Source of the DNA: Acidobacteriota bacterium | Lineage (GTDB): Bacteria > Acidobacteriota > Vicinamibacteria > Fen-336 | DNA: 64,000 bases | Direction of reading: 5' to 3' | Assembly (NCBI GenBank): GCA_011526565.1 | Contig: WYBL01000116.1 | Span: 3,019 to 67,018, forward strand | Notes under the pieces: generated by a model | What the model saw: only the letters and a program-made list of their open reading frames with translations | What the model was told of the DNA's origin: nothing | Databases searched by the model: none | Made by a program: the position numbers and the translations under genes | In this document: positions 8,174 to 63,982 of the stretch, piece after piece | How positions within the stretch are numbered: the first letter of the stretch is position 1 | Layout: every line of letters starts with the position of its first letter

Positions 8174-8177
8174 AGCG

Positions 8178-9418
<1,241 letters not shown>

Positions 9419-18600: not shown

Positions 18601-18879
18601 CACGACCAGCAGGTCGACGGCCAGCAGCGTGCGCAGGCCGACGCGCGCGGACAGGCGCAGGCGCAGGAAGCCGGTGACCGGGATCGCGATCGCCGCCGCG
18701 ATGTAGACCCAGGGCAGGTGGCGGGCGTCGCTGTGCGACAGGAACAGCGCCATGCCCGCGGTGCTGGTCAGGTTGCGCGGCACGCCGATGCAGAAGGAGT
18801 GGAGCATCAGCAGCCAGACGAGGCGCTCCTCCTCCGGGCGCACGTCCAGCATCGTGGCGATCGCCCTGCGCAGCCCCAT
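15655..18879 (-). CDS. Large multidomain protein: an N-terminal ATP/ADP-translocase-like (TLC/Npt) multi-TM transporter domain, central HEAT/PBS-lyase-type repeats, and a C-terminal cyclic-nucleotide-binding domain
   Basis: About 12 predicted TM helices lie in the first 430 aa. A helical repeat region carries recurring DPAVRRDA, REPAVRRAAL and DDPEVRLS motifs (HEAT/PBS-lyase-like). The C-terminus (VEKVIILKSVSIFRETPDEILAEVASRLEEVDVGPGGIVFEKGDMGSALYIVVEGGV...REIFGEMAAL...RSASVLA) is a cNMP-binding fold. Confidence 0.75.
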   Translation of the reverse strand: MGLRRAIATMLDVRPEEERLVWLLMLHSFCIGVPRNLTSTAGMALFLSHSDARHLPWVYIAAAIAIPVTGFLRLRLSARVGLRTLLAVDLLVVLVTLLTLRGALGMGHVVPVALVLPVWAEVEGVLLTLEFWGLSGSLLNVRQGKRLFGPIGAGELAAGALTGLLVPLFVARFGTADLLWVSAAAVVGCLALLRVVTRRFPLLEAAGGEEDRSHAARSGGGLRSGYLRLLFALVALSYVAYYFLDNAFYALAAARYPAERDLTAFIGVFNGSVAAITLLARALAGRALARFGLGALQFMPAAIGLGCLGVVGAGALAAPTALLFALLALTKLVDQSLRDSIDRSAVLLLYQPLPGAARVRAQTAVEGIVGPLAGGVAGIALLALVGGLGFGAVELCALLGLLVLGWVVVAATLRGAYTEKLRRALESRHLQGVSLALDASSLAVLQKGLHSPRPEEVAYCLGVLEELGHPSLESAVVAQLGHQDPAVRRDASLRVERLGLRAALGAVRLAAVAEEDAAARGAALRALAAIGEPEDVERVMLSLDAPEVEARCGALVALLRHGGIEGVLAAGERLVTMARAEEPVAREEAARVIGEVGQASFYRPLIALLADREPAVRRAALWAAGRLRNPRLLPLLLRSLDLPAHRSAAMAALVASGPAVLPDLEQAFHAADEQRRRSAQRRVARLIGQIGGARAREFLWLCADHDDPEVRLSLLSSLATTGFEAAPAAVPQVKERIAREVRDAVVVLAMLEDVRAEARGALLASTLDHAFGRARERVFCLLGFVYPPDPVLRARVNLSSRRPEKRAQAVELVDSLVTPDVGKLVVPLLEDVAHAERLRKLGATFPHQLLGFAARLERLVTDEATAPWLRACALQAAVEADLPGLLALAPRVPADETIVREVLTRLPRRRQPATGLALDEAERLIARYEAELSGGTSMLTTVEKVIILKSVSIFRETPDEILAEVASRLEEVDVGPGGIVFEKGDMGSALYIVVEGGVRVVNEGRVLRELGPREIFGEMAALDPEPRSASVLAIGATHLFRLEQEALYELMADRIEVVRGVIRVLCERLRTVTS

Positions 18880-32209: not shown

Positions 32210-33325
32210 ATGGTTCTCGGCCTGTTCGGGGGAACCGACGTCGGGGACCTGATCGCGAAGAAGAAGTACGCGCGGGCCATCGAGGTCCTCGGCGAGCAGC
32301 TTCGCCGGGGCACCTCGGACCCGCGCGTCCGCAACCAGCTCGCGGACGTGCTGATCATGGCCGGCCGCGAGAAGGAAGCGGTGCCGGTGCTGATCGAGCT
32401 GGCGGACGAGTACGCCCGCGTCAACCAGGCCCCGCGCGCGATCGCGCTGCTCAAGAAGATCGAGCGCATCGACCCCGGCCGTCGCGACGTCGACCAGAAG
32501 CTGGCCTCGCTGATCCGCGACAAGAAGCCGAAGGCCAAGGCCCCGGCGGGCGGCGGCTGGCAGCCCTACGAGGAAGGCGGCCTGAGCACCGGCGGCTCGG
32601 TGTTCGACGCCTCCCACTTCGAGCCCTCGCCGTACACGGGCCAGGAGTCGGTCGCCGCGGCGAAGAAGGCGTCGTGGGAACCCGACATCGGGACCCGGAA
32701 GGAGGAGGCGCCCGGCGCGCCTGCGCCCCCCGACTTCCCTGCGATCCAGCTCCCGCCCGAGCCCGACGAGCCGCCGATGTTCTCGCAGGAGATGTTCCGC
32801 GGCCAGGTGCTCGACGTGATCCAGCAGGTGCTGCAGTCGCCTGCCGTGCCACCCCCGGCGCCACTCGCGACCGCGCCGGCCGTGACGGCCGAAGGCGAAG
32901 AGCCGCTGATCGAGGTCGAGCCGGAGCCGGAACTCGTGACGAGCCCGCTGTTCGGCGACATGTCGGAGGACGAGCTGATCGCGTTCATGCGCGGCCTGCG
33001 GCTGCTGAGCTTCGAGCCCGGCGACGTGATCCTGACCGAGGGCCACCCGGGCGACTCGCTGTTCGTGGTCTCGAGCGGCCTGGTCAAGGCCTTCGTCAAG
33101 GACCAGGGAGCCACCGGCCAGCGCCTCGCCCGCACGATGAAGGACGGCGACTTCTTCGGCGAGATCTCGATCCTGTCGGGCAAGCCGCGCACCGCGACGG
33201 TCACCGCGGCGACCCGCGTCGAGCTGCTGGAGATGGACCGCCCGACGCTCGACGAGATGCTGAAGCAGTACCCGCGCATCATGCAGGTCCTGCAGGACTT
33301 CTACGTCGCCCGCGCGACGGCCTGA
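32210..33325 (+). CDS. Helical (TPR-like) N-terminal module plus C-terminal cyclic-nucleotide-binding domain protein
   Basis: The N-terminal module is paralogous to both modules of the 34752..37451 protein. The cNMP fold reads ...FEPGDVILTEGHPGDSLFVVSSGLVKAF...GDFFGEISILSGKPRTATVTA.... A GGAG RBS lies about 8 nt upstream. Confidence 0.72.
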   Translation: MVLGLFGGTDVGDLIAKKKYARAIEVLGEQLRRGTSDPRVRNQLADVLIMAGREKEAVPVLIELADEYARVNQAPRAIALLKKIERIDPGRRDVDQKLASLIRDKKPKAKAPAGGGWQPYEEGGLSTGGSVFDASHFEPSPYTGQESVAAAKKASWEPDIGTRKEEAPGAPAPPDFPAIQLPPEPDEPPMFSQEMFRGQVLDVIQQVLQSPAVPPPAPLATAPAVTAEGEEPLIEVEPEPELVTSPLFGDMSEDELIAFMRGLRLLSFEPGDVILTEGHPGDSLFVVSSGLVKAFVKDQGATGQRLARTMKDGDFFGEISILSGKPRTATVTAATRVELLEMDRPTLDEMLKQYPRIMQVLQDFYVARATA

Positions 33326-37451: not shown

Positions 37452-37603
37452 CGTGGTAACCCGTTGAAGGTGAGCGGCCGAGGCGAGGCTATGCGCCACG
37501 CGGCCGGGGGTCAACCGGCCAAACTTGACTTTTTAGTCCAGATTGCCGATTCTTGGGTCTGCGCCCTCCCCGAGCGCGGCATCGGAAGGACTTCCCGCCC
37601 GCC

Positions 37604-39043
<1,440 letters not shown>

Positions 39044-39065
39044 CGGCAACAGGAATCGAAGAGAG

Positions 39066-39832
<767 letters not shown>

Positions 39833-39836
<4 letters not shown>

Positions 39837-41253
39837 GCACGGTGGAACCGGCCGCGCCGGACGCGACCACCCCGGCTCCGGCCCCCGCGGCCGCGCCGAG
39901 CGCTGTCGAGGTGCGCGAGACCCAGCGCGAGGCTTCACGGCGCGACGAAATCGCACCCTGGCTCGTGGCGCTCGAGGCGCTGCGCCGAAAGGGAGAGCCG
40001 GAGTGGCTGGCCGCGCAGCGCGACGACGCCACGGCCCGCTTCGCGCGCCTCGGCTTCCCCACCACCCGCGACGAGGCCTGGCGCCAGACCAGCGTCGCGG
40101 CGCTGGCGCGCACCCGCTTCGACAACGCGACCCGCGGCGCGCTCGACGACGCGCTCGAATCGATGCCCGCGTTCCGCTTCGGCGGAGCGTTCGCCGGCCG
40201 CGAGGCGGTGTTCGTCAACGGCCGCTTCATGCCCGAGCTCTCCAGCCTCGGCAAGCTGGCCCGGGTGCGGGTGCGACCGCTGCGCCAGGTGCTCGCGGAC
40301 GACCCCGACGCGCTGTGCGGCCTGATCGGCGCGGCGGCCGACGACGACAAGCACCCGTTCCTGGCCCTGAACCTCGCCGCCTTCCAGGACGGCGCGGTGG
40401 TCGAGGTGCCCGAGCGATACACGGTCCACGGCCCGATCCACCTGCTCTTCATCAGCACCGGCGGCGCGGCCAGCCATCCGCGGGTGCTGATCGGCCTCAA
40501 CCGCAACTCCCAGGCGACGGTCGTCGAGAGCTACGTCAGCCCGCGCGGCGCCCACTCGTTCTGCAACGCGGCCACCGAGGTGCTGCTCGGCGACGGCGCC
40601 GTGCTCGACCACGTGCGGCTGCAGGCGGAGTCGGAGAAGGCCTACCACGTCGCCACCACCGCGACCCGGGTCAGCCGCAGCGCCACCTACCGCAGCCACG
40701 CGCTGACGCTGGGTGCGGCTCTCTCCCGCCACGACCTCGGCGTGCGGCTCGAGGGCGAAGGCGCCGACGTCGAACTGCACGGCCTGTTCGTCTCCGACGA
40801 CGCCCAGCTCCACGACACCCACTCGAAGCTCGACCACGTCGCCCCGCACGGCACCTCGCGCGAGGTCTACAAGGGCGTGCTCGGCGGCCGCGCTCGCGGC
40901 GTCAAGAACGGGCTGATCGTGGTGCGCCCCGGCGCCCAGAAGACCGACGCCCAGCAACAGAGCCGCAACCTGCTGCTCTCGCGCGAGGCGCTGGTCCACG
41001 CCACGCCGCAGCTCCTGATCCACGCCGACGACGTCAAGTGCAAGCACGGCGCGACCACGGGCCAGATCGAGGACGCGCCGCTGTTCTACCTGCGGTCGCG
41101 CGGCCTCGACGAGGAGGCGGCCCGCGCGCTGCTGGTGTGGGCGTTCGCGGCCGACGTGGTGTCGAAGCTGAAGGTGGCGCCGGTCCGCGAGTCGGTCGAG
41201 CGCTTCCTGCGCGAGCGGCTGCCGGCGGCCGGCGCGGTGCCCGGGACCCGCGC

Positions 41254-41257
<4 letters not shown>
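39833..41257 (+). CDS. sufD: Fe-S cluster assembly protein SufD
   Basis: It overlaps the sufC stop (ATGA) and has the SufD/SufB-like beta-helix C-terminus (...LSREALVHATPQLLIHADDVKCKHGATTGQIED...). Confidence 0.85.
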
Positions 41258-52585: not shown

Positions 52586-52976
52586 CCCTGCCGCCCGCGC
52601 GTGACCACCTCGACCGTGCCGCCGGGCCGCAGGATCAGCTCGATCCGCGCCGCATCCGAGACTTGAAGCACCTGAGTCCACCGCTCCGCCCTCCCGTCGT
52701 TCGACCAACTCACCGTCGCCTGCACGACGCCGGCGTGCGCCCGCACCCGGAGCCTCGGCCCCGTGCCCGTCTCGTGCCCGAGCAACTCGGCCCGCACGCA
52801 CGCCGCATCCACCCTCAGCGTGACGCCAGACGCAGCCCCCGGCCCGCCATTCACGACCTCGACGAGCACTCTGTCGCCGAGGAGGCGGGCGCCGAGCCGC
52901 GGCGCGGCGGCGAGCCCCGCCCCGACCACTGCGAGCGAAGCGACGGCCGCCCAGCGCAACGCCAGGTGGCCACTCA
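52582..52976 (-). CDS. Small secreted hypothetical protein
   Basis: Signal peptide MSGHLALRWAAVASLAVVGAGLAAA. Both ends overlap the neighbouring genes by 3-4 nt (operon-style). Confidence 0.45.
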
Positions 52977-54337
52977 TGGCTTCTGGTAGCCGTAGAGCTC
53001 GCGTCGAGCGCCGGCAACCGGGGACATCCAGTCGTCGATCGGGAGACCGGGGAGCGGGCGGCCCCAGAGGTCGCCCCACCTCGCGCCTCGGAGGAAGCTG
53101 ATCGTCCAGCGCTGGACGAGATTCATCAGCGGGAGCGCGGCGTGCAGGGTCATGCCCTTGCGGAACGGGAGGTTCTCGCCGACTCCGAGGAACCCGCCGA
53201 AGTCGCGCTCCGCGACGCCGACCACGGAATCCCGGTCCGCCCACTCAGGAACCGCCCCGTGCAACGGCACGGTACCGTCGCCGAGGTTGTCGCGCCAGGC
53301 GTCGACGTCGGCCGGGGCCCCGTCTTCGCCGCGGTACTCCTGCGACTCCACGTCGAACGCGAAGCGGCCGTCGGCCGCCAGCTTCACACGATGCGCCGTG
53401 CGCTCGTCCAGGCCCACGATCAGCAGCCACTGGCCCGGCTCGGCGAGGGCCGCGCTCGGGTCCTCCTCGTTGACGCTCGCGAGGAAGCTGCGCCCGTCTT
53501 CGAGGCGCTCGCGGAGGTACTTCCACGCGGACTTCATGCGCTGCTCGGCGTTGGAGTTCCTGGGGTCGGTGCTGTGCGTCCGGATGAAGTCGGCGACCGA
53601 CTCGACGATGCTCTCCTGCCAGTTCTTCGCGTTGAAGATCGCCTTCCCCGAGTGCCCCGCCAGCGCTCCTTCGAAGTACGGCAACAGGTGGTAGATCGCG
53701 GGCGTCATGCGGGCCGCCAGGCGCTCGCTGTGCTGCGGCGAGCCGACCATCGAGCCTTCGCCCGTGGCCAGCTTGATCACCGCGTCGACCGCTCCCTGGA
53801 AGGGCGTTCCGATCGTCACCACGCGTCGAACCAGCGGCTTGCCGTTCGGGCCCTTGCAACCCTTGGCGAGAGCCGATGCGATCACCAGACCGCCCATCGA
53901 GTGGCCCACGAGGTCGACCGTCGTCGCCTTCTCTTTCGCGTAGCTCTTCAGGAGGTTGGTGCGGTCGATCACCTCGCGCACGAACTCGCAGAGCTGGTCC
54001 GCCACGACGCGGTTGTCGGCGCGCCAGTCGTAGGCGAACGGGAAGACGGGCACGACTGCCGTCGGCCCGCGATCTTCGCGCAGCGCCGATCGCAGCTCGC
54101 GGATGAACTCCGCGTAGCCCATCTCCGCCGCGTGCGAGGGGACGATCTTCGCCGGCTCCACCGCCTCGAAGCGCAGGTCGTCCGGGTGCATCGCGATGCG
54201 GTGGAACTCCTTGATCGGCCGCCAGCGCAGCGCCTCGATCCCGGGGTCCCAGACGACCTCGGGCGTGGTGGGATAGACGTCGCGGAGCACGGACCCCGTG
54301 ATCCCGTGGACGACGATCACCGGTGGCTGCACCTTCA
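52974..54337 (-). CDS. Alpha/beta-hydrolase of the PGAP1/LCAT-like lipase family
   Basis: MKVQPPVIVVHGITGS and the nucleophile elbow LVGHSMGGLVIAS are present; PGAP1-like esterases share the VHG...GHSMGG pattern. Confidence 0.68.
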
Positions 54338-54444
54338 TTGCCAGGCCCTCCAGACTCGCTCGTTCATAAAGTATACATAAAGCACACACGGAACGCTCGA
54401 TGGATCGGCTTTGAGCCCCGCGCGAAGGCTCGAGCCTCGGCCCT

Positions 54445-56760
54445 TCAGGGGCGGCGCAGGGTCTCCAACGGGGCTTGCCGTGACGCGGCGACTGCCGGTG
54501 CCAGCGAGGCGGCGGCGGCGCACAGAAGGGTGAACGCCGCCGATGCGGTCAGCGTCGTGAGTTCGAACGACGCCCACTGGAAATGAGCCGACTCGGCCCA
54601 CTGGCCCAGCCACACCGAGACGAGGGTTCCGATCCCGATGCCTGCCATGGCCAGCGTCGCCCCCTCGGCCGCCATCAGGATCGTCAACTCGCGGGGCCCT
54701 GCTCCGACGACGGCCCGGACCGCCATCTCGAAGCGGCGCATCGCGGCGAGGGAGTACACGACGGCAGAGACGCCGACGAGCGCCGCCCCAAGGCCGACGA
54801 GGGCGTACGTGCCGAGCAGTCGCACCTGCGCCAGGAGCGGCGCCTGTGCTCGGGCGACGAGATCCCCGGCGAACACCAGGCCATGGACCGAGGGGCTCTT
54901 CGCCGTCCCGCTGACGGCGTGGATCTGCCGAGCGGCCTCGCCGCAATCGTGGCAGCGCACCAGCAACCACTCCTCGTCGGGGTGGCGACCGCGGGCCGGC
55001 CGACTGCGCGGCAGGTAGCACTGGGGCAGGGGTTCCTGGGCAGCATCGATGCCTCGTACCGGTGCGACGACGCCGATGACCTCGCGCAGGGCCAGTTCGC
55101 CCTCGATGCGGATCTGACGACCCACGGCCGCGACAGCCTGCCCTGGCCGCCGCCCCTCGTCGGCGAACGCCAGGATCAGTACGTCCGCGTCTCCCGGCGC
55201 GAAAGCCCGCCCGGCGAGCAGCCGGATCCCGGTCGCGGCCAGGAAGTCGCCCTCCACGTGCCAGACCTGACAGAGGACCCTCCCGGCCTCCCCGTCGATC
55301 CACACGCCCCCTGCTGACGCGACACCTGGAGGCGCAGACGCGGTCGCCGCGGCCGACACTCCGGGAAGTTGCGCGACCTCGGCCATCAGGGCCTGAGGCG
55401 AGGCGCCCAGGCGCCCGAGCAGCAGGTTCTTCGATTCGTAGCCCAGAGGAATCTCGAGTGCTGCTCTCAGGGTCCATGCGGAGACCAGCGCGCCGTTGAG
55501 CAAGACGACCGCGATGACCGTCTGACTGATCACCAGGAGGCGGCGCGTCCACCGCACCTGCCCTGTGGACGCTCCCCCGCCGTCCCGCAGGCCTTCCGAC
55601 GGAGCCGCGCGCAATGCAACGGCCATCGCGCCGGCGGATGCGAGGAGGACGCTCGGGAACGCCAGACCGAGAGCCGCCCCGCTCGCGACGGCGACGAGAC
55701 GCTCGAGCGGCGGCTGGTGGACCCACCAGGCCGCGAATATCTCGCGTCCGCCGACGATCGAGAGGGAGGCGACCAGCGCCCCCACGACGCCCACTCCGAG
55801 GGCGAGGGAGAACGTCTCGCTGCCGAGCTGCAGCAGGAGGTTTCGCCGCGTCGCGCCGAGAGCCTGCCGCACGGCGAACTCGACGCGGCGCACCGACATC
55901 CGACCCAGCAAGAGAGTGCCCAGGCTCGCGACGGCGGTACCCAGGAGCAAGCCCGAGAGCGCCAGGAGCAGCAGCGCGGGCGCTATCACTCTCTCGCGCG
56001 CCACGTCCACCATCGGCCGGACGAACACGCGCTCGCCGAAGCGCACCCCGGTGCTGCGCGTGTAGAGGGCGTGCAGGCCGTGCAGCAAGCCCCCCAGTTG
56101 CGAACGCGCCGACTCGATGCTGGTCTCGGGCCGCAGGCGCCCGACCCAGCCGTCGCGTCGCACCAGGCCGAACGGATCGTCGTTGCCTCGGGCCCGCCCT
56201 CCTGCACGCGTGCGTGGCGTCCAGATCTCGGTGCCTCCCGGGAAGTCGAAGCCCGCCGGGGCGACACCGACGACGCGGTGAAGGGTGCCTTCCAGCAGGA
56301 TCTGCGCCCCGAGCACGGCCGCCCCGGGACCGAAGTGCCGGTCGCGGAAGGCGGCGCCCACAACGGCCACAGGTTCGTTCGATCGATCCTCCTCGACGCT
56401 GAATGCGCGCCCCGGCAAAGGAACGACCCCGAACACGCTGAAGAAGGCGGCGGAGACAGCGGTGGTCCTGACCTCTCTACGGTGGCCGTCCAGTCGGACC
56501 TCGACGAGTCCGGTCTCGTAGGTCGCCAACGCCGCGAGGCTTCGCGCCTGCCCCCAGTACTCGACGGGGTCCCCGACGAGAGGGTGCGCCATGTTCCCGA
56601 GATGCACGATGCGGTCCGCCGCGGGCACCCCGAGCGGGCGCAGGACCAAGGCATCGACGGCGGCCACCATCGCGCTCGCCACGCCGAGGACGACCCCGAG
56701 GGCGATGGCGACGACGGCCGTACCGCGATGGCGAAGGGCGAGCCGGGCATCGAGGCGCAC
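54445..56760 (-). CDS. ABC transporter permease of the FtsX/MacB type (duplicated FtsX domains; ADOP family); no ATPase gene adjacent
   Basis: An N-terminal TM helix is followed by a large periplasmic domain, then two blocks of 3-4 TM helices (...LLLGTAVASLGTLLLGRMSVRRVEFAVRQALGATRRNL... and ...VVYSLAAMRRFEMAVRAVVGAGPRELTILMAAEG...), the pattern of the FtsX permease fold. Confidence 0.72.
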   Translation of the reverse strand: MRLDARLALRHRGTAVVAIALGVVLGVASAMVAAVDALVLRPLGVPAADRIVHLGNMAHPLVGDPVEYWGQARSLAALATYETGLVEVRLDGHRREVRTTAVSAAFFSVFGVVPLPGRAFSVEEDRSNEPVAVVGAAFRDRHFGPGAAVLGAQILLEGTLHRVVGVAPAGFDFPGGTEIWTPRTRAGGRARGNDDPFGLVRRDGWVGRLRPETSIESARSQLGGLLHGLHALYTRSTGVRFGERVFVRPMVDVARERVIAPALLLLALSGLLLGTAVASLGTLLLGRMSVRRVEFAVRQALGATRRNLLLQLGSETFSLALGVGVVGALVASLSIVGGREIFAAWWVHQPPLERLVAVASGAALGLAFPSVLLASAGAMAVALRAAPSEGLRDGGGASTGQVRWTRRLLVISQTVIAVVLLNGALVSAWTLRAALEIPLGYESKNLLLGRLGASPQALMAEVAQLPGVSAAATASAPPGVASAGGVWIDGEAGRVLCQVWHVEGDFLAATGIRLLAGRAFAPGDADVLILAFADEGRRPGQAVAAVGRQIRIEGELALREVIGVVAPVRGIDAAQEPLPQCYLPRSRPARGRHPDEEWLLVRCHDCGEAARQIHAVSGTAKSPSVHGLVFAGDLVARAQAPLLAQVRLLGTYALVGLGAALVGVSAVVYSLAAMRRFEMAVRAVVGAGPRELTILMAAEGATLAMAGIGIGTLVSVWLGQWAESAHFQWASFELTTLTASAAFTLLCAAAASLAPAVAASRQAPLETLRRP

Positions 56761-56787
56761 GGGAGATGGTAGCGGCCCAGTGCGGCC

Positions 56788-57015
56788 CTATGAACGAGGC
56801 GCCGGCTCCCAACGCCCGGCACGGCAGACGAGGATGCTGCTCTGGCCCCTGATCAGAGCACCCTCGGAATACGTGGCCCCCTCGAACGTGCATCCGGCGG
56901 GCTTGGCGGCAGGCAGCCCTGGCGACTGGTCGGAAGCCCTCCAGAGGGCGAGGGCAGCCAACAGACTGACGATGCCCAGGACCCCGATCGCCAGACGGAC
57001 GTGCGGCTGCTTCAC
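56788..57015 (-). CDS. Small secreted/membrane-anchored hypothetical protein (75 aa, 2 Cys)
   Basis: It has an N-terminal hydrophobic segment and lies 3 nt downstream of the TlpA-like gene. Confidence 0.35.
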   Translation of the reverse strand: MKQPHVRLAIGVLGIVSLLAALALWRASDQSPGLPAAKPAGCTFEGATYSEGALIRGQSSILVCRAGRWEPAPRS

Positions 57016-57018
57016 AGT

Positions 57019-57618
57019 TCACCCCTCCTGTTCGACGCCATCCTCACGTTGCAGCCCCGGCAGACGAACTCCGAAATAGGCCTCCACTTCGCCCTGCAGC
57101 GCACCCGAGAGAGCACCGCCCCATATCTTCTCGACTCGTCCATCGGCGCTGACCACGATGAGGGTCGGCGTGGCCGCGAGCCCGAACTCCTGCGCGGTCG
57201 GACGTTCGAGACCGACAACTTCGAACCCCAGCAGTGTTTCCTCTGCTGTCACCTTCTCGCGGGACGCGCTCAAGGAAAGCCCTTTGAACTGATATCGCCC
57301 CGTGCTAGCGGCGGCCAGGACGCGGATGTTCGCGAGATTGCGACGGCACCAGACGCACTCCTCGGACTGCACGTAGAGAACACTCGGCAGGGCGCCTCCC
57401 AGCGTGAGCGGTTGTCCCCGTCCGTGGCGATCGGTTACCGGGATCTCCGGAACTTGCCTGCCGACACTCAGGGCCTTGGGAGGTCGACCCCGGTCATCAG
57501 GTGGTTGCCTGAGCTTGAGGCCGAGACCCACATTCGCGGCAAGGGAGGCGCCCAAGGCGATGAGCAACAGCGCCACGGCCAGATTGCTGTCGAGAAGCCG
57601 ATCCATGCAGGCTCGCAT
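57019..57618 (-). CDS. TlpA/ResA-like membrane-anchored thiol-disulfide oxidoreductase (thioredoxin fold)
   Basis: The N-terminal TM anchor is LAVALLLIALGASLAANVGLGL. The CxxC motif sits in ...SEECVWCRRNLANI..., with a downstream TPTLIVV cis-Pro-like region typical of the redoxin family. Confidence 0.62.
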   Translation of the reverse strand: MRACMDRLLDSNLAVALLLIALGASLAANVGLGLKLRQPPDDRGRPPKALSVGRQVPEIPVTDRHGRGQPLTLGGALPSVLYVQSEECVWCRRNLANIRVLAAASTGRYQFKGLSLSASREKVTAEETLLGFEVVGLERPTAQEFGLAATPTLIVVSADGRVEKIWGGALSGALQGEVEAYFGVRLPGLQREDGVEQEG

Positions 57619-57690
57619 GGTGGCACCTCCTTTCCGGGGGCTGACGGGTGGCGTACTCCGGCCAGCTGGCGCTGGCCGGAGTACAGGTTG

Positions 57691-57957
57691 TCAGCAGAGC
57701 TCGCAGGATCCCCAGGTTCCGTCGCTCTTGCACTTCTGGCTCTTGCCGCTCGAGCAGACGCTCTGGACGCAGGAACCGGTGCTGTAGCAGACACCTGCGT
57801 ACTGGCAGTTGCAGCTACCGCCACTGCCCCCGCCATCCCCAGGATCCTGGTAGTACGGCCCATCGGCCAACACCGAAAACGCGCCGCCGGCACCGACGAT
57901 CATCAGCAGCGTCAGCGCCAGGACGAATCCCCTTCGCGCCCGTCGTGTCCTTCCCAT
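57691..57957 (-). CDS. Secreted Cys-rich mini-protein (88-aa precursor; about 57-aa mature region with 8 Cys)
   Basis: An SD GGGAG lies 7 nt upstream of the ATG. The Sec-type signal is MGRTRRARRGFVLALTLLMIVGAGGAFSVLA. The mature part is DGPYYQDPGDGGGSGGSCNCQYAGVCYSTGSCVQSVCSSGKSQKCKSDGTWGSCELC, with Cys spacing C-x-C-x5-C-x5-C-x4-C-x7-C-x8-C-x2-C. Confidence 0.5.
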   Translation of the reverse strand: MGRTRRARRGFVLALTLLMIVGAGGAFSVLADGPYYQDPGDGGGSGGSCNCQYAGVCYSTGSCVQSVCSSGKSQKCKSDGTWGSCELC

Positions 57958-58261
57958 CGTTCACTCCCTCTGGCGGGCTCACCCGCTGGGCCAAGTGTAT
58001 ACCAAGGGGCCGCTTTTCGACACCCTCTAGTCGATCATGAGCCGCGGCACTGACGGGTGCCCGCGAGTCACGCCGGGTAAGGGTCCGGCGGCGGAGTGAA
58101 TCCGCCGGCGGATTCTCTGGCGTCTGGGCGGGAGGACTTGGGCCCGCCCTCCCACCCGCTGACAGTCTCCACCCCCAAGCCCCCGGGCGCACGCCACGTG
58201 GTCCCTGCGCCGGCGGGGTGTTGTCCACGGGCACAACCACCCGGCTGACAGTGCGATCGCG

Positions 58262-58645
58262 TCAGGGGGCGGCGGAGGCTGGTTCAGCGCGCTGCCCCCC
58301 GCGCAGGCTGCCGAGCCGAGCGATGAGTACCTTGCATTTCAGGGCAGCGACTTGCCTGCGCCACTCGGGGCCCTGGTCCTGAAGCACGTTGAGGGCTCGC
58401 TCATAGCTCGCCTCGGCCTCTTGGAACGCGCCGCTATCGAAGTGAGTGTCCCCTTCCCGGGAGTACAGGCCGGCTGCACCTGCGAGCCCCGCCGATTCAC
58501 TGGACAAGTCCGTCTGCTGCGTGGGCATCACCCCGACCGGCAAGAGGAACATCAGCGGCAGCGCCACAACCGCAAGAAGGACCACTGCGGCACAACCGAC
58601 GGGAGTGATCCAACTTGTTCCGCGCCCCTCCGCAGACGTGGTCAC
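58262..58645 (-). CDS. Small membrane protein with a helical TPR-like C-terminal region; hypothetical
   Basis: The TM helix is AAVVLLAVVALPLMFLLPV. The C-terminus resembles one TPR unit (...GAFQEAEASYERALNVLQDQ...). Confidence 0.4.
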   Translation of the reverse strand: MTTSAEGRGTSWITPVGCAAVVLLAVVALPLMFLLPVGVMPTQQTDLSSESAGLAGAAGLYSREGDTHFDSGAFQEAEASYERALNVLQDQGPEWRRQVAALKCKVLIARLGSLRGGQRAEPASAAP

Positions 58646-58663
58646 TGGCTCTTGCGCTTTGCG

Positions 58664-59116
58664 TCACGCGCCGCAGGAGGTGGGGCTGGCCTGGAGTCGA
58701 TCGATCATCTCGATCGCCTTGAGCAGTTCTCTTTGGAGGACTTCGAGCGCCTTGGTGTTTTCGTCGTCCAGCTGCTTCTGCACGGTCCGGGCGTGGTCAA
58801 GGATCCTGTCGATTTCTGCAGACGCAGGTGCGTGGGCCTTCGCGAGTTCTTCGGCGGCGATCTGCTGGAACTTCGCGTCCGCGGCAAGCTGGCGGGCTAC
58901 TCCCTGCGCGATCGTCTCGCGGAGGCTGGAGAGTTGATACAGGATGCCCGCACCCCCACACAGCAGGCCCACGACCAGCCATGTCTTGAAGAACCGCACG
59001 ACACGCTCGCGGAGGTCCCACTCGACCTTCCGGATGGCGCGAAGCAGCAGTGCCGCTTCCTCCTCCGTCAGAGTGTCCGGCAAGGCCGGAGCCTTCGCTT
59101 TCTGGTCATCGCTCAT
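58664..59116 (-). CDS. Small membrane protein with a coiled-coil C-terminus; hypothetical
   Basis: The TM helix is WLVVGLLCGGAGILY, followed by a helical charged tail. Confidence 0.42.
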   Translation of the reverse strand: MSDDQKAKAPALPDTLTEEEAALLLRAIRKVEWDLRERVVRFFKTWLVVGLLCGGAGILYQLSSLRETIAQGVARQLAADAKFQQIAAEELAKAHAPASAEIDRILDHARTVQKQLDDENTKALEVLQRELLKAIEMIDRLQASPTSCGA

Positions 59117-59134
59117 GTAACACCCCGTTTCCGA

Positions 59135-60262
59135 TCAAGCAGGCAGGCAACAGACGAATCCGCTGACCAGCCACAGGCCCAGCAAGCCGAGGGCTGTCAG
59201 AAGGAGGCCCAGTGCTCCGTAGCGCAGGAGGCCCGCGCGAAGCAGGCGCGGCGGTGGACGCCAAGGGGGCTCGGGCAGGGCTCGCGCGGGGACTGCGGCT
59301 GAGACGTGATCGCCTGGGACGCTGAGGAACGGTCCCCACGTGTGCTCGAAGACGTCCGGCATTCGAGCCTCGTCGAAGAAGTCGCTGTGGCTGAAGTCCG
59401 CGTCGAAGGCGTGGTGGATGCGAGCCCTGTCATCGAAACCGCGGCAGCCGGACGGGCCCGATTCGGGGATGAAGTAGACGGCGACGCTCGCCCACACGTC
59501 CCGGCCCGCCGCGTGACACAACACCGCTTCCACGCGGCCGGCTTCGATCAGCGGTGCCCAGCCGAAGTCCGGGCGGACGATGCTCCCCGCCAGGATCACC
59601 CGGCCCACTTCGATCGACGAGTCGGCCAGCAGAGCCTGGGCGAGCAGCCATGTGCCGAAGCTGTGGGCGATCACGTCCGGACGGCCACCAAACCCCGCCC
59701 CCAGGGCGCGCGCCTGGATCACGCGAAACCGCTGAACCAGATGTCGCACGAGCTGTCGCTGGCGGAATCTCACCAGCACCCCTGGCCTCACGACGCCGTA
59801 CTTGTAGACGAAGACCGGGACGGAGTGGCCGTAGGTCGTGGCGAGGTGCCAGGCGAGAGACTCCTGCCACGATCCGGTCGTGTTCATGCCATGGAGCGTG
59901 AGGACCCAGGGGACGTCGCGGGTCGGGGGCTCGTGGCGCTCGAAAAAGGTCTCGGGCCGGGGCTCGTCCCCCGGCGCGAAGACCCGCTCACATTCGGAGC
60001 ATGCGGGCGTCGAAGGCTCGTCCAGCTCGAGGCGCCGTTCGCACGGGCAGACGAATCCCGCGCGCGCCTGGAGAAGACCCGCGGCCGCAAGATCCGCGAG
60101 CAGCGCCGCGGCCTCAGTGAGCGGCGCGTTCGTCCGAGTTGCGAGGCTCTCCGCTGTGAGCGACAGCGGACCACCCGCCAGGAACGCCCCGCGGCACGAC
60201 TCGACCAGTCGCCCGGAATACCGCCCCGCAATGACAGGCCAGGGGTCCGTCACGCCGCTTCG
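59135..60262 (-). CDS. Alpha/beta-hydrolase (DUF676/PGAP1-like serine esterase) with an N-terminal wHTH-like segment, a CxxC...CxxC zinc ribbon and a C-terminal TM anchor
   Basis: The zinc ribbon is GFVCPCERRLELDEPSTPACSECERVF. The hydrolase core carries the elbow DVIAHSFGTWLLAQALL and a later ...HHAFDADFSHSDFF... segment. The C-terminal hydrophobic tail is LLRYGALGLLLTALGLLGLWLVSGFVCCLPA. The GTG start overlaps the upstream gene. Confidence 0.55.
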   Translation of the reverse strand, partial: RSGVTDPWPVIAGRYSGRLVESCRGAFLAGGPLSLTAESLATRTNAPLTEAAALLADLAAAGLLQARAGFVCPCERRLELDEPSTPACSECERVFAPGDEPRPETFFERHEPPTRDVPWVLTLHGMNTTGSWQESLAWHLATTYGHSVPVFVYKYGVVRPGVLVRFRQRQLVRHLVQRFRVIQARALGAGFGGRPDVIAHSFGTWLLAQALLADSSIEVGRVILAGSIVRPDFGWAPLIEAGRVEAVLCHAAGRDVWASVAVYFIPESGPSGCRGFDDRARIHHAFDADFSHSDFFDEARMPDVFEHTWGPFLSVPGDHVSAAVPARALPEPPWRPPPRLLRAGLLRYGALGLLLTALGLLGLWLVSGFVCCLPA

Positions 60263-61302
60263 ACGACGCGGCTCAGCAAGTCCCACACCTCGCTGGAACG
60301 GAGCTGGGTGCGAATGTGGATGCGCCGCTCCAGGCTGAACAAGCCGAAGCGCACGGGCGTCAGGGGCGCCGCCCGCGGCCAGGTGAAGAGTCCCATTGTC
60401 GCGGTGAGCTTGTCTCGCCTCAGCGCTTTCCACGCCTGGCGGATGACTGTGGAGTCTGTGTAGGCGTGGTCCTTCTTGAGGCTCTCGAACGCGACAGACG
60501 CCAACCCGTCGTCCAGGCGCGCCTGTATCGGCTTGACGCTGACACCTCCCGCTCCCTCTGAGCCAGTCGCCTCGCTGGCCTGCGCCAGGCGCTTGACCGC
60601 ATCGGACAGCCCGATCGGCTCCAGCTTCCCGAGGTCGATCGCGGCCTTGACCGTCTCGGCGATGCGGGCCCGCGCCTCTTCGTGAGCGGCGCGGTTCCAG
60701 GGCACCTGCAGGAAGGCCGCGGCCAAACGTGGCTCTCGGTGCAACTCGAGCCTCATGAGCGTCCGGTCGCGGCGCTGGCGATACGCTTCGTAGCGGTAGA
60801 CCTCGCCGTCGTCCTCGGCTGCCGGAGCCTTGTCGCGCTCCTTCGTCCGCTCCCAGATCTCCAGACCCTTGTGCCAGACGAAGCGGATGGAATCCTCGGC
60901 CTGACGGATGCCGGTCAACTCCTGCTCGTCCGGGAAGGCGAGCGTGGAGGGGGCCCCGAGCAGGGATTCGAGCCCGGCGCGCGCAAGCCGCCGGCGCAAC
61001 TGGGGTTCCGAGGTGAATAGCGCGTCCGGCACCACGCTCGCCGGCAGCCACCAGAGGTAGATGTGCTGTTCGCCCCAGCCCTCGACGTGCGCCAGCCAGG
61101 ACTCGACATCCTCCAGCCGCAACTCGCCGTCGTCGACTGCTGCGGCGAGGTTGTGCGCGAAGTCCTCCTTCGTCCGTCCGATCGTCAGGCCCTTGTCGCG
61201 GAGCAGTTCCTTGATGAAGACGTTGCCTTGCGCCAGGACGATCCCCGAGACGAGTTCACGGAGCTGGGACTTCTCGCGCGGAGTCGGGCCCTTGCCCCCC
61301 AT
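60250..61302 (-). CDS. Hypothetical cytoplasmic protein (350 aa)
   Basis: Protein-like composition with mixed alpha and beta character; no family recognised. It is operon-coupled (4-nt gap upstream, 13-nt overlap downstream). Confidence 0.5.
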   Translation of the reverse strand: MGGKGPTPREKSQLRELVSGIVLAQGNVFIKELLRDKGLTIGRTKEDFAHNLAAAVDDGELRLEDVESWLAHVEGWGEQHIYLWWLPASVVPDALFTSEPQLRRRLARAGLESLLGAPSTLAFPDEQELTGIRQAEDSIRFVWHKGLEIWERTKERDKAPAAEDDGEVYRYEAYRQRRDRTLMRLELHREPRLAAAFLQVPWNRAAHEEARARIAETVKAAIDLGKLEPIGLSDAVKRLAQASEATGSEGAGGVSVKPIQARLDDGLASVAFESLKKDHAYTDSTVIRQAWKALRRDKLTATMGLFTWPRAAPLTPVRFGLFSLERRIHIRTQLRSSEVWDLLSRVVEAA

Positions 61303-61306
61303 GGCG

Positions 61307-62516
61307 TCACCCCTCCGGGTTCACCTCGCGGACCAGGACCTTGGGCTCTCCCAGCAGATCCAGGTCCAACGTGAGCCTCGGCTGGCCGCCCGCGCGCGCG
61401 CTCGGATACACGAGCCCCGGGATGCGTTCGTCGCCGCTGCCCGCCACTTCGACCAGGAAGCCGCCCTGACCGGGATACACGACGAGAGCGCCCGGGTCGG
61501 CGTCGTCGAGGGCGACCACGCGATAGCCGAAGCGACCGGGATCGGCGTAGAGCTGTCGGGTGGTGATCGGATGATCGTAGGGGGTTCTCGGCAGCCCCTT
61601 GCCGCCATCCGCCGCGGCGGCCACGTCCAAGAAGACGTTGGCCGCATCGAAGCTCTTGCCTGCAACCTCGACCAGCGGCTCGACCCGATAGACCCGCAGC
61701 CACTTCTGGCACGCCGGACATTCCTTCTTGTCGGCCTCCTTAAGCGCGACACACGGTTCGGTCGGCGGAGCAGTGCAGACGTAGTAGAAGGCCGGGGCCG
61801 ACTGTGCCTCGGCAGCCGGGCCGGCGACCAGCGCGCCCGCGGTCAGGGCCAAGATCGGAGCCCTCCCGCCGGCGGCTTTGGCGATGGCGTTGATGAAGAC
61901 CTCGAGGACGCTTTTCAGGTTCTGGTAGAAGGTGGTCACGAAGAGGCCCGCGAGGAGCGCGAGCACCTGCCCTGCGGTCGTCGCCGTCGTGCCAGCCAGG
62001 AAGGCGAGCCCAAAGACGAGCCCGTAGCAGATCACTCCCGCCAGGGCCGCCAGGAAAAACGAAGCGAGCAGGCTCGGGAACGCCTGCTTGCCATCGGGCT
62101 GCAGGGCGCTGAGCCAGACCGACGCGCACCAACCGATCAGGCCACTGAGACAGAAGGCCGCGACCCACAAGCGCGGGTGCGGTCGCGACATTAGGAGGGT
62201 CCGAGCTACGGGCCGCTTCAGTTCGGCCGCATAGAGCTCCGGGAAGATGTGCCGTTGAGCAGCGTCCTCCTGGGTCATCTCGACGGCGCCGAGTCGTGTC
62301 GTTTCGTCGGGCCTCGGCGCGTGTTTGTCCCAGACTCGGATCGCCCAGTCGACCTGGGCGTAGAGCCAGACTGCACCCACGAACACGGCCACGGAGGCGA
62401 GCAACGTCCGGACCAAACGGTCTCGCTGAGACTTCTGTCGTCGCAACGCCGCACCTCCCGCGGACAGGGCCGGCCCTGGAACGGTTCGGGTATCATATAT
62501 ACGCTTTGCGTACCGC
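61307..62516 (-). CDS. Membrane protein with a C-terminal extracytoplasmic Cys-containing domain; hypothetical
   Basis: Four or more TM helices (LLASVAVFVGAVWLYA; WVAAFCLSGLIGWCASVWLSAL; LLASFFLAALAGVICYGLVFGLAFL; VLALLAGLFVTTFY) precede a roughly 170-aa domain with CTAPPTEPC and CPACQKW. The start is uncertain: the ATG at 62516 lies in a locally AT-rich patch, and the ATG at 62278 is an alternative. Confidence 0.42.
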
Positions 62517-62526
62517 ATCGGCAACC

Positions 62527-62923
62527 GGTGGGTCCCGTGCCTGTACCGCTTCACGGACCGGAGCAGGCAGCCTCGGCGGCGGCCGGCAATGCGCTGGTGC
62601 TGGAAGCGTCCACGAAGTCTGCCGAGAAACTGGGGCGACACCTCAGCGCTTTTCACTTGAAGGTGAAGGCTCCTGACCGTGAGTTGCCCTTGGAGTCTGC
62701 CTTCCAGGGCAGCAAGGTGTTCGAACGCGGCGGCCCCTTCACGGATCTCTACGCCGCTGGGGCCGTGGATGCCAAGCGGGATCCTCGGCTGCGAGATTCG
62801 GGACGGGTCATTGCGTTCGATTTTGCGGGCCATCGCTTCCCGGTCGAGCCGCGCACCGCCTTCTACGACTGGCTCTACATCGACACGCGACGTCCACCTC
62901 CGCCCTGGTTCGGGGCCCTGTAG
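62527..62923 (+). CDS. Small hypothetical protein (about 130 aa) with low GC3 relative to its neighbours; start uncertain
   Basis: A protein-like sequence (...LESAFQGSKVFERGGPFTDLYAAGAVDAKRDPRLRDSGRVIAFDFAGHRFPVEPRTAFYDWLYIDTRRPP...) convergent with the AAA ATPase gene. No ATG is in frame, so the start is GTG/TTG with an unclear RBS; an alternative start lies near 62596. It could also be the C-terminal end of a longer gene. Confidence 0.3.
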
Positions 62924-62995: not shown

Positions 62996-63982
62996 TCAGC
63001 CCTTGCGACCCAGCCGGGCAGCGGCGCGCTGCCGTTCCTGCAAGGTGGCCCGGATGTCGGCCTCGCGAAGAGGCAGGCGCTCCGCGATCAGCGCCTCCTT
63101 GAGAGCCTCGTCTCCCGCTCGAGTGACCTCGGCATGGCTCAGACCGCTCGCCAGCCGCGCGAGCTTGGTCCAGGGGGTGCCCTGGATCGCGAGAGGACCG
63201 AGCCGGGAGCGGAGCAACTCGGCGACCTGCTTCTGGCTCGGCAGCTCGTAGTGGAGCACGTCGTCGAAGCGCCGCAGCAGCGCAGGGTCCAGGATCTGCC
63301 CGTGGTTGGTGGCCGCGAGGATCAGGCTGTTCGAGTGATCCTGCTCGATCATCTTCAGGAAGCTGTTCAGCACGCGCCGGATCTCGCCGACGTCGTTCGT
63401 CAACCCACGCTGCGAGCCGATCGCGTCGAACTCGTCGAAGAAGTACACGCCTCGCGTCTGGCCCGTGGCGTCGAAGACCTGCCGCAGCTTGGCGGCGGTC
63501 TCGCCGAGCATTTTGGTGATCAGGCCGTCGAGCCGGATCTGGAAAAGCGGGAGACCAAGCTCGCCTGCCAGCACTGAGGCCGTCAGCGTCTTGCCCGTAC
63601 CCGGAGGGCCGACCAAGAGCAGCTTGCGGCGCGGCGTGAGGCCGTGTTCGAGAATGCGCCCGGCGTGACGCTGCTCGCGCAGCACCCGGGTGAGCTGCCC
63701 TTCCAGCTCGGGCGCCAGGACCATCTGGCCGAGGCGGCTCGCCGGATAGGACACCTCGAGGAGGTGCGCGAGGTCCCCGCGGGGTCGCGCGATCGGGACG
63801 GGAGATGCGGCCCCGCGCCGCCGCTTGGCGTCGTCGATGACGGCCCGCAGTTCTTCCGCGAGCTTCCCGTGCCCAAGCCGCGCCTCGTGAGCAGCAACCT
63901 GCATCGCCACGGAGAAGAACCGTTGGTCGTCCCGCTCGACGAACGAGTCGAGCAGTGCCTTGAGCTGGTCAGCGCTGGCCAT
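62996..63982 (-). CDS. AAA+ ATPase (classic AAA family, single ATPase domain with a roughly 100-aa N-terminal domain)
   Basis: Walker A LLLVGPPGTGKT, Walker B VYFFDEFDAIG, sensor-1/SRH LILAATNHGQILDPALLRRFD. The ATG at 63982 leaves its promoter and any upstream partner outside the window. Confidence 0.8.
   Translation of the reverse strand: MASADQLKALLDSFVERDDQRFFSVAMQVAAHEARLGHGKLAEELRAVIDDAKRRRGAASPVPIARPRGDLAHLLEVSYPASRLGQMVLAPELEGQLTRVLREQRHAGRILEHGLTPRRKLLLVGPPGTGKTLTASVLAGELGLPLFQIRLDGLITKMLGETAAKLRQVFDATGQTRGVYFFDEFDAIGSQRGLTNDVGEIRRVLNSFLKMIEQDHSNSLILAATNHGQILDPALLRRFDDVLHYELPSQKQVAELLRSRLGPLAIQGTPWTKLARLASGLSHAEVTRAGDEALKEALIAERLPLREADIRATLQERQRAAARLGRKG

Follow-up and report, generated by a model that had tools for sequence, protein, structure and literature searches.

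A Recurrent Acidobacteriota Gene Module That Links a Secreted Cysteine-Rich Mini-Protein to a Membrane-Anchored CxWC Redoxin and an ADOP-Like Permease

Introduction

The closest described parallels to the locus reported here come from two rather different settings. In Escherichia coli, the STII (STb) enterotoxin is secreted via Sec, DsbA, and MacAB-TolC, the MacB-family machine taking its substrates from the periplasmic side; another MacB-family protein, AS-48H, belongs to a bacteriocin cluster (PMC5985334). In Gram-positive bacteriocin and glycocin clusters, those of PedC and of enterocin F4-9 for example, a disulfide-containing peptide is encoded with its own thioredoxin-like protein and with transporter and immunity genes (PMC4919988; PMC8620827), and the PedC oxidoreductase raises the potency of pediocin (PMC4919988). 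Here, we analyze a 64-kb stretch of DNA (hereafter the window; ~72% G+C) from an Acidobacteriota bacterium (assembly GCA_011526565.1, contig WYBL01000116.1, positions 3,019 to 67,018). On its minus strand, from 58007 down to 54445, it carries a compact module that encodes an 88-amino-acid (aa) precursor of an eight-cysteine peptide, a 199-aa thioredoxin-fold protein (redoxin) with a CVWC active site, a 75-aa protein with two cysteines, and a 771-aa permease.

Other described families resemble single components of this module. Bacterial cis-defensins, of which there are five classes, are likewise small, secreted, cysteine-rich peptides of soil bacteria, one of them acidobacterial; the terms thioredoxin, operon, and gene cluster do not occur in the paper that describes them (PMC11561630). 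For the domain family DUF1496, we found no description of a function or of partner genes, and the only functional data that we found concern the member encoded by plasmid pOXA-48, which is processed and abundant (bioRxiv 10.64898/2026.07.12.738056). Among the MacB homologs with fused permease units, the ATPase is always a separate and separately encoded protein (PMC5985334).

In soil, the Acidobacteriota rank with the most abundant bacteria; they are difficult to grow in culture, and little is known of how they compete. The recurrent module that we define in them unites a secreted cysteine-rich peptide, a CxWC redoxin, and an ADOP or DUF3738 protein. Its components come from known superfamilies and their combination is apparently undescribed: no account of it was found in Pfam, NCBIfam, PADLOC, or the searchable literature, as had been supposed in a preliminary description of this DNA that was made from the letters alone.

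Results

The Peptide Gene and Its Product

The four genes of the module are co-directional and closely packed. The peptide precursor gene (57691..57957) is followed by the redoxin gene (57019..57618); the gene for the 75-aa protein (56788..57015) starts 3 nucleotides (nt) past the redoxin stop, and the permease gene (54445..56760) lies 27 nt beyond it. All four are real genes, two of them are paralogs, and the linkage of all four is conserved in other genomes.

The small open reading frame (ORF) at the head of the module is the one whose reality might most readily be doubted. Among the metagenome loci that carry the same module, two served for a codon-level comparison: L001, with 97.4% nucleotide identity over 5 kb (blastn), and L004, with a redoxin that is 83% identical. 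Against L001, the peptide gene shows 10 synonymous and 6 nonsynonymous differences, a ratio of nonsynonymous to synonymous substitution rates (dN/dS) of 0.17; against L004, the ratio is 0.36, and in both comparisons all eight cysteines are retained. In several records, from metagenomes and from NCBI, independent annotation has also called the gene, always as a "hypothetical protein." This purifying pattern of substitution, together with the retained cysteines and the independent calls, establishes the ORF as a real gene. It has the strong Shine–Dalgarno sequence attributed to it earlier, GAGGGAG at 57964-57970, within a stretch, CCAGAGGGAGTGAACG, that is identical in L001 and L004. The 304 bp in front of it (57958-58261), formerly described as noncoding, deserve that description only if a weak 127-aa ORF at 58262-58645 is a real gene.

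The precursor would consist of a signal peptide (residues 1-31), a flexible Gly-rich N-terminal tail, and, from about residue 48 to residue 88, an eight-cysteine core that resembles DUF1496. The hydrophobic segment spans residues 12-30 and cleavage is likely at VLA/DG; the signal-peptide and disulfide predictions were made manually. The mature part of 57 aa (5.7 kDa, pI 4.4) is Gly-rich at its N-terminus, and its cysteines are spaced exactly C-x-C-x5-C-x5-C-x4-C-x7-C-x8-C-x2-C; the signal sequence and the Gly-rich eight-cysteine region had thus been correctly recognized from the start. The window peptide contains RRARRGF, which made Tat export a candidate; no homolog has twin arginines, so that Sec is the more likely route.

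The peptide itself has no match in Pfam or NCBIfam, and a word-indexed search returned just one near-identical protein. An exhaustive HMMER search with the mature part as query gave 13 matches with E values up to 1e-3, mostly proteins of 72-93 aa with signal peptides, and their alignments define a family core, C-x-Y-x-G-x2-Y-S-x-G-A-C-[IV]-x-S-V-C-x5-Q-x-C-x3-G-x-W-x2-C-x2-C. Two large proteins with weak repeats of the motif (P0009 and P0014) were uninformative. The resemblance to knottins or defensins that had been proposed for the peptide was rejected: the CxxxC...CxC motif is missing, and the core as modeled by AlphaFold (predicted local distance difference test score, pLDDT, 84-87) is all-beta and found no knottin or defensin match in fold searches. 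It appears instead to be a remote relative of DUF1496.

Two Paralogs of One Small Fold

This relationship emerged from comparison with the 75-aa protein, the second small exported protein of the preliminary description. The latter does have an N-terminal hydrophobic segment, an anchor or a signal, followed by a minimal two-cysteine DUF1496 domain; it is basic, and it matches Pfam DUF1496 (PF07383) with 23.2 bits (E = 4.9e-5), above the gathering cut-off of 20.2. The same model does not match the window peptide and gives weak matches (best E = 0.0035) to 4 of the 13 members of the eight-cysteine family. When the profile of the peptide family was aligned to the 75-aa protein with hhalign, the probability was 93% (E = 3.5e-7), and a hidden Markov model of the family core retrieves 75-aa proteins at E = 2e-5. 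The profile alignment and the DUF1496 matches together imply that two products of the operon are distant paralogs sharing a single small fold.

The eight-cysteine peptide may accordingly be described as a disulfide-elaborated remote relative of DUF1496 that falls below the curated membership cut-off. Its family has in common with DUF1496 the core C-x-[YF]-x-G-x2-Y-S-x-G-A...C-x3-G-x-W. Judged by sequence, the two paralogs differ markedly: the 75-aa form is minimal, basic, anchored, and equipped with two cysteines, whereas the eight-cysteine form is acidic, presumably secreted, and predicted to have up to three additional disulfides.

The pattern of cysteine gain and loss across the family is a paired one. 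Cysteine 49 (or a nearby upstream cysteine) occurs with cysteine 57 in 22/22 of the secreted members that align at both positions; 63 goes with 88, with few exceptions, and 68 with 85, while 51 and 76 are the sole cysteines of the minimal form. From this presence and absence in pairs, we infer the disulfide map C49-C57, C51-C76, C63-C88, and C68-C85, in which the cysteines would be structural.

Homologs of the 75-aa protein occupy the same operon position in L026 and lie elsewhere within the locus in L023. In L018 (7812-8483), a minimal two-cysteine DUF1496-like module with the sequence …FCPYCIWDGHINSPGKVIKVDGRQIRCKQNGKWTEPY is fused to the C-terminus of the redoxin, a fusion by which the 75-aa protein and the redoxin are physically tied. 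At the end of the L018 contig, another copy of the redoxin stands in tandem (8539-8781).

The CxWC Redoxin

The protein encoded directly downstream of the peptide is, as had been noted earlier, a membrane-anchored redoxin with a CxxC site. It has a single N-terminal transmembrane segment (TM; residues 13-31), the active site C88-V-W-C91, a cis-proline at T150-P151, and a conserved C-terminal motif, Q-x-E-V-E-A-x-F-x-V-x-L-P-G. The anchor, the C-x-W-C site (with W in >90%), the T-P loop, and the C-terminal motif are shared by 15 homologs, in which C88, C91, and P151 are invariant. Such a combination of thioredoxin fold, CxxC, cis-proline loop, and N-terminal membrane anchor is that of the TlpA/ResA type, and the family profile finds ResA, StoA, and Etrx-type chains in the PDB at E values of 1e-6 to 1e-3. 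The Pfam Thioredoxin_2 match (E = 3e-4, 21.4 bits) remains below the cut-off of 27, and the active-site dipeptide is xW, versus xP (CxPC) in TlpA and ResA. The earlier label "TlpA-like" would therefore be valid at the superfamily level only and not in any closer sense.

Conserved Linkage of Peptide and Redoxin

To follow the module into other genomes, we used a redoxin profile built from an alignment of five sequences, which yielded 9 loci in species-representative genomes and 52 loci in the Joint Genome Institute (JGI) metagenomes. The linkage set derived from them comprises 56 redoxin genes from 53 nonredundant loci. The named genomes are Acidobacteriota metagenome-assembled genomes (MAGs), save two MAGs labeled Heliomicrobium, and many of the metagenome contigs are short. 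A heuristic small-ORF filter selected products between 40 and 150 aa long that have a hydrophobic stretch at the N-terminus and a tail holding at least 4 cysteines at a density of at least 7%.

An ORF of this kind ends within 400 nt upstream of the redoxin gene in 30 of the 45 cases with enough upstream sequence and starts within 400 nt downstream in 7 of the 46 with enough downstream sequence. Where both flanks are available, the redoxin gene has such an ORF on the same strand on one side or the other in 33 of 37 cases. In the remainder of these loci, the filter picked out 2 ORFs over 330 kb of strand sequence, a background of 0.003 per equivalent window, and it missed at least two true cases (L015 and L022). 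The linkage of small, secreted, cysteine-rich proteins to the redoxin, which the preliminary description had surmised from the one locus, is thus far beyond chance.

The gene order persists over considerable divergence, the redoxin being kept directly downstream of peptide homologs that are 35-50% identical. L022 has the peptide and then the redoxin, with no permease. In L023-L025, the genes are those of an AraC regulator, peptide, redoxin, GT4 glycosyltransferase, and two ADOPs, and an anchored DUF1496-like protein of 72 aa is encoded just upstream. L026, at ~43% peptide identity, reproduces the exact order of the window: peptide, redoxin, a 69-aa DUF1496-like gene, and ADOP. An ADOP lies within 5 kb downstream in 6 of the 7 evaluable loci with DUF1496-like peptides and in 1 of the remaining 27 redoxin loci (Fisher p = 3.5e-5); the peptides of that single locus, L030, look DUF1496-like on visual inspection. 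Downstream of the remaining peptide families comes either a DUF3738/TIGR03435 protein (10 loci) or nothing. The refuting conditions on cysteine conservation and gene linkage that the preliminary description had named did not refute a conserved module: homologs retain the cysteine positions, and redoxin and permease genes are linked to them.

The partner peptides are by no means all of one kind. The 53 loci contain at least four unrelated cysteine frameworks, among them the DUF1496-like one, CC-x2-S-x-DC...CC-x-P...PNYC, and a 14-cysteine CCQxCE framework encoded downstream of the redoxin; NCBIfam offers no meaningful name for the other redoxin-linked peptides. The presence of several unrelated frameworks beside it indicates that the redoxin tracks the property of being secreted and cysteine-rich rather than any one sequence family, and this would be the expected behavior of a dedicated disulfide enzyme. 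In L030 and L042, peptide paralogs are arranged in tandem.

Several of these loci hold additional genes. In L023 (6242-8170), the gene between the redoxin and the ADOP encodes a 642-aa GT4 glycosyltransferase that also matches the Pfam family "GT4-conflict"; GT4 genes are present in L030 and L037 as well and in no other of the related loci. By analogy with the glycocins, the peptides of the GT4-bearing loci may be glycosylated. Alone among the loci, L020 has a candidate for an extra modifying enzyme of the radical-SAM type: its gene (1082-2161) lies 585 nt upstream of a six-cysteine peptide gene (2746-3006), and the redoxin gene that comes next appears to be frameshifted. Adjoining the redoxin and DUF3738 genes of L028, a BlaR1-type Peptidase_M56 is fused to DUF3738 (7020-8906, minus strand), an arrangement which suggests a sensory or ligand-binding function for DUF3738. 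A family of ~515 aa without a Pfam domain lies just downstream of the redoxin in six loci (L014, 8653-10191; L017, 8970-10586; L042; L045; L046; L058), mostly those with the "CC..S.DC…PNYC" peptide family. Another, of ~606 aa and likewise without a Pfam match, recurs in L005, L015, and L029, and its L005 member matches L056 in tblastn with 31% identity.

The Permease

The permease has two MacB_PCD and two FtsX domains (Pfam) and eight predicted TMs, arranged as two units of one TM, a periplasmic domain, and three TMs. It aligns with positions 16-801 of the 803 in TIGR03434, the model of the ADOP family (duplicated orphan permease of Acidobacteria), with a score of 322.8 bits that lies below the NCBIfam cut-off of 622.3; on this evidence it has the ADOP architecture and belongs to a divergent branch. 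The duplicated MacB_PCD and FtsX domains in one chain and the lack of an adjoining ATPase gene are typical of ADOPs, and the two MacB units per chain are found also in E. coli YbbP. No description of an ADOP that we found mentions linkage to a peptide-redoxin pair.

No nucleotide-binding domain is present in the permease. A six-frame scan of the window for Walker-A/LSGGQ returned a single site, at 39171, in SufC between two SufB/D genes, and the same motifs gave no ABC ATPase signature in 13 related loci. Neither a periplasmic adaptor (membrane-fusion protein) nor an outer-membrane duct was found among the Pfam-scanned neighbors, in contrast to the tripartite MacAB-TolC arrangement. The preliminary description was therefore right that the double-FtsX permease has no ATPase or membrane-fusion gene nearby. 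ADOPs usually adjoin a PadR-family regulator, and none was seen among the same neighbors. That the related loci hold an ADOP and no ATPase fits the statement that the ATPases of such permeases are encoded separately (PMC5985334). With no adaptor or duct encoded, immunity or handling is at least as likely a role for the permease as export.

Expression Signals

Within the segment 57990..58007 on the minus strand, where the block shared with L001 begins, TGGTATACA (58004-57996) resembles an extended -10 element and lies ~45 nt before the peptide ATG; at the same place, L001 has TGGTATACC and L004 has TGATATAGA. This element may act as the promoter of the peptide gene. A scan of 54000-59200 for consensus sigma-70 promoters found no site. 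A sigma-54 promoter, TGGTAT-N5-TTGGC (58004-57990), was considered and rejected, given that the GG is missing from L004 and that sigma-70-like -35/-10 pairs are seen at other loci.

Six nucleotides past the peptide stop, at 57653..57684 of the same strand, is a hairpin with a perfect 14-bp stem and a 4-nt loop (GTACTCCGGCCAGC gcca GCTGGCCGGAGTAC). The 75-nt intergenic region around it has a folding energy of -40.8 kcal/mol (z = -5.0 vs shuffled sequences). The stem is kept in L001 and L004 with a different loop, and analogous hairpins follow the peptide genes of L018, L023, and L011. There is no T-tract at the hairpin, and a terminator scan did not flag it; it is likely to be a partial terminator or attenuator, or else a stabilizer of the mRNA, in each case favoring the peptide message.

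A Probable Mosaic Block in a Probable Variable Region

The blastn alignment with L001 begins at window position 58007, ~50 nt upstream of the peptide ATG (L001 position 2530). Upstream of this point the two sequences diverge, and L001 has a GAF-HTH_8 regulator there. Within the shared block, dS reaches 0.18 in the peptide gene, compared with 0.013 in the redoxin gene (more than a tenfold difference) and 0.034 in the ADOP gene, an unevenness which suggests that the block is a mosaic created by recombination at its peptide end.

The surroundings differ in composition from the rest of the window. Third-codon-position G+C is 0.94-0.98 in 1-44000 and 0.80-0.90 from ~44000, after the suf and Rrf2 genes, to 64000; overall G+C falls from ~72-76% to 67-69% in the last ~20 kb, where most genes have no Pfam family. 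These features suggest that the last ~20 kb, including the peptide module, are a variable or acquired island.

Discussion

Comparison with Described Systems

The window module resembles the STII route in having a small peptide that would be exported by Sec, periplasmic disulfides, and a MacB-family (type VII ABC) partner. The differences lie in the oxidoreductase, which is DsbA for STII and a dedicated, operon-encoded, ResA/TlpA-like CxWC protein here; in the permease, which is a fused double unit with no linked ATPase, adaptor, or TolC and for which export is a candidate role; and in the extra, anchored peptide paralog. The resemblance to the Gram-positive clusters, to which the BdbA and BdbB proteins of sublancin add a further example of cluster-encoded oxidoreductases, extends to the glycosyltransferase in L023, L030, and L037, a feature in common with the glycocin clusters. 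Nonetheless, the window peptide has a Sec signal, with its hydrophobic core and small-x-small cleavage site, and not the double-glycine leader of class II bacteriocins and glycocins, no C39-peptidase ABC exporter is encoded at the locus, the host envelope is of the Gram-negative type, the permease is of the MacB/ADOP kind, and the peptides are acidic. In this comparison, the anchored 75-aa paralog and the ADOP are the immunity candidates. From the cis-defensins, the peptide differs in its cysteine framework and, as far as the model indicates, in its fold, which lacks the CS-alpha-beta motif and is all-beta. Nor does the window module have the modifying enzyme, other than an oxidoreductase, that stands beside the precursor in systems for ribosomally synthesized and posttranslationally modified peptides.

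A Competition Factor?

We consider it about an even chance that the operon makes and handles a secreted, disulfide-stapled mini-protein whose most likely role is that of a bacteriocin-like competition factor. The 88-aa precursor would be transcribed from its own promoter, and the hairpin past its stop would let the peptide message outnumber those of the accessory genes. Sec would export the precursor, and the signal peptide would be cut after residue 31; on the periplasmic side of the inner membrane, the anchored CxWC redoxin, acting as an oxidase or proofreader, would form or correct the four disulfides of an acidic product of ~5.7 kDa. On the folded peptide in the periplasm, two proteins might then act, the basic 75-aa paralog, working physically with the redoxin, and the eight-TM ADOP, borrowing an ATPase encoded elsewhere. 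Most likely these two would protect the producer, by immunity or by removal of the peptide from the membrane, or else they would pass the peptide outward, where it would serve competition between bacteria. In favor of this proposal are the retained linkage of peptide, redoxin, and ADOP, the association of the redoxin with cysteine-rich peptides of several frameworks, the L018 fusion, the pairing of the cysteines, the Shine–Dalgarno sequence and hairpin of the peptide gene, and the precedents described above. A conflict-like setting also speaks for it: the upstream context has changed relative to L001, the dS of the peptide gene exceeds that of the redoxin gene, there are tandem paralogs and a GT4-conflict gene in related loci, and an IetA-like ATPase gene is found close to the window module.

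A number of observations weigh against it. The comparisons with L001 and L004, where dN/dS is <0.4, reveal no positive selection on the peptide. The mature peptides of the family are acidic (net charge -1 to -4, pI ~4-5), which sets them apart from most antimicrobial peptides that act on membranes. Of the redoxin's solved relatives, the closest (ResA, StoA, and Etrx) are reductases and not oxidases, and neither DsbB nor VKOR nor CcdA is encoded in the operon as a redox partner. The permease is missing from L022 and replaced by DUF3738 in L054 and L021; where it is present, the lack of a linked ATPase, adaptor, or duct leaves an export role without direct support. ADOPs are, besides, reported to be numerous in Acidobacteria genomes.

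Some of these points would be better accommodated if the locus served envelope redox or metal homeostasis, with the peptide as a cysteine-rich periplasmic buffer or chaperone for thiols or a metal such as copper, kept reduced or recycled by a TlpA/ResA-type reductase, and with the permease as a separate detoxification unit. The reductase relatives of the redoxin, the acidity and cysteine density of the peptides, and the want of an encoded oxidase partner are all in keeping with such a role, but we regard it as unlikely. The paired gain and loss of cysteines fits structural disulfides and not free ligand thiols, and the conserved core consists of aromatic and Gly residues of the fold. Many unrelated frameworks and tandem paralogs suit diversifying effectors better than a housekeeping chaperone. 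Furthermore, the locus lies in a variable region, the loci contain no metal-sensor, efflux, or CcdA/DsbD gene, and no CcdA/DsbD-like gene recurs among the neighborhood families of the redoxin loci.

The permease raises a different question, that of whether two adjacent modules have been taken for one. Downstream of it (52974..54389, minus strand) is a gene for an LCAT-like alpha/beta hydrolase (Pfam LCAT, E = 3e-12) with neither a TM nor a signal peptide predicted, and the YbbP protein of E. coli, a fused double-MacB permease, works with a lipid hydrolase (PMC12646458). The peptide, redoxin, and 75-aa genes could then be one unit, and the ADOP and hydrolase genes a separate lipid-handling one resembling YbbAP-TesA, the hydrolase being included in the 5-kb block that is 97% identical in L001. 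We think this quite improbable. The hydrolase gene is carried by the window group (L001-L003) and by none of the other related loci, which rules it out as a core element and makes it probably no true part of the module, and its product has no signal peptide; the ADOP, on the contrary, follows the DUF1496-like peptide-redoxin pair in 6 of 7 loci versus 1 of 27 others, and just 27 nt separate it from the 75-aa gene.

That the peptide is an extracellular signal, a quorum or developmental cue sensed by the 75-aa paralog, by the ADOP, or in other loci by DUF3738, strikes us as having little probability. It would agree with the purifying selection on the peptide, with the fusion of DUF3738 to a BlaR1-type M56 transducer in L028, and with the upstream regulators of some loci (AraC in L023, GAF-HTH_8 in L001). 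Those regulators vary from locus to locus, though, the window module has no sensor kinase or transducer, and unrelated frameworks, tandem copies, and a variable context fit conflict systems better. Finally, a chance neighborhood of unrelated genes or a spurious small ORF, a natural suspicion in high-GC DNA with its many long spurious ORFs and for a peptide with no Pfam or NCBIfam match, is refuted by the purifying selection, the 13 homologs with conserved cysteines, and a linkage in dozens of loci against a background of 0.003.

If the competition reading is extended beyond the window, a more general and decidedly tentative conjecture presents itself, namely that Acidobacteriota and their relatives carry widespread, unrecognized, Sec-dependent, disulfide-rich effectors, each matured by an anchored CxWC redoxin, with the large "orphan" paralog families of the phylum, the ADOP permeases and the DUF3738/BlaR1-type proteins, as immunity or sensing partners. 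Were it true, it would provide a first functional context for those families and for DUF1496; in any event, testable roles can now be offered for DUF1496, ADOP, and DUF3738, three families to which no function has been assigned. The redoxin is a simple genomic handle with which to mine new disulfide-rich peptide scaffolds, and should its family-wide link to cysteine-rich peptides prove functional, the discovery would be the broader one. If the redoxin is a disulfide catalyst dedicated to its substrate, it would be to Gram-negative bacteria what PedC and BdbA are to Gram-positive ones, and if the peptides are toxins or signals, they would be compact and stable scaffolds of possible biotechnological use.

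Other Genes of the Window

PADLOC gave no match for the genes of the module. About 5 kb from it, on the same strand, is a gene (62996-63982) for a 328-aa AAA ATPase that matches the PADLOC IetA model at E = 1.4e-70. The adjoining 508-aa gene (61307-62833, minus strand) has no match in PADLOC or Pfam and occupies what we take to be the position of the IetS protease, the partner of IetA in the Iet defense system; the pair may be a variant of Iet in which another protein takes the place of the usual partner. Between these genes and the module, a long ORF (59135-61051, minus strand) without a PADLOC match is alpha/beta-hydrolase-like, its C-terminal part having a lipase-type HSFG motif and a hydrophobic tail, and with the LCAT-like gene on the other flank the module is bracketed by two genes of this kind. 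At a greater distance, a suf Fe-S cluster at 37553-41257 comprises two SufB/D homologs (37553-39043 and 39440-41257) with SufC between them and is followed by genes for an Fe-S assembly protein and then an Rrf2 regulator. Three proteins with cyclic-nucleotide-binding domains are encoded within 18 kb (15655-18879, 26750-28609, and 32210-33325), each with a different fusion partner: HEAT repeats, a patatin/NTE-like phospholipase, or TPR repeats.

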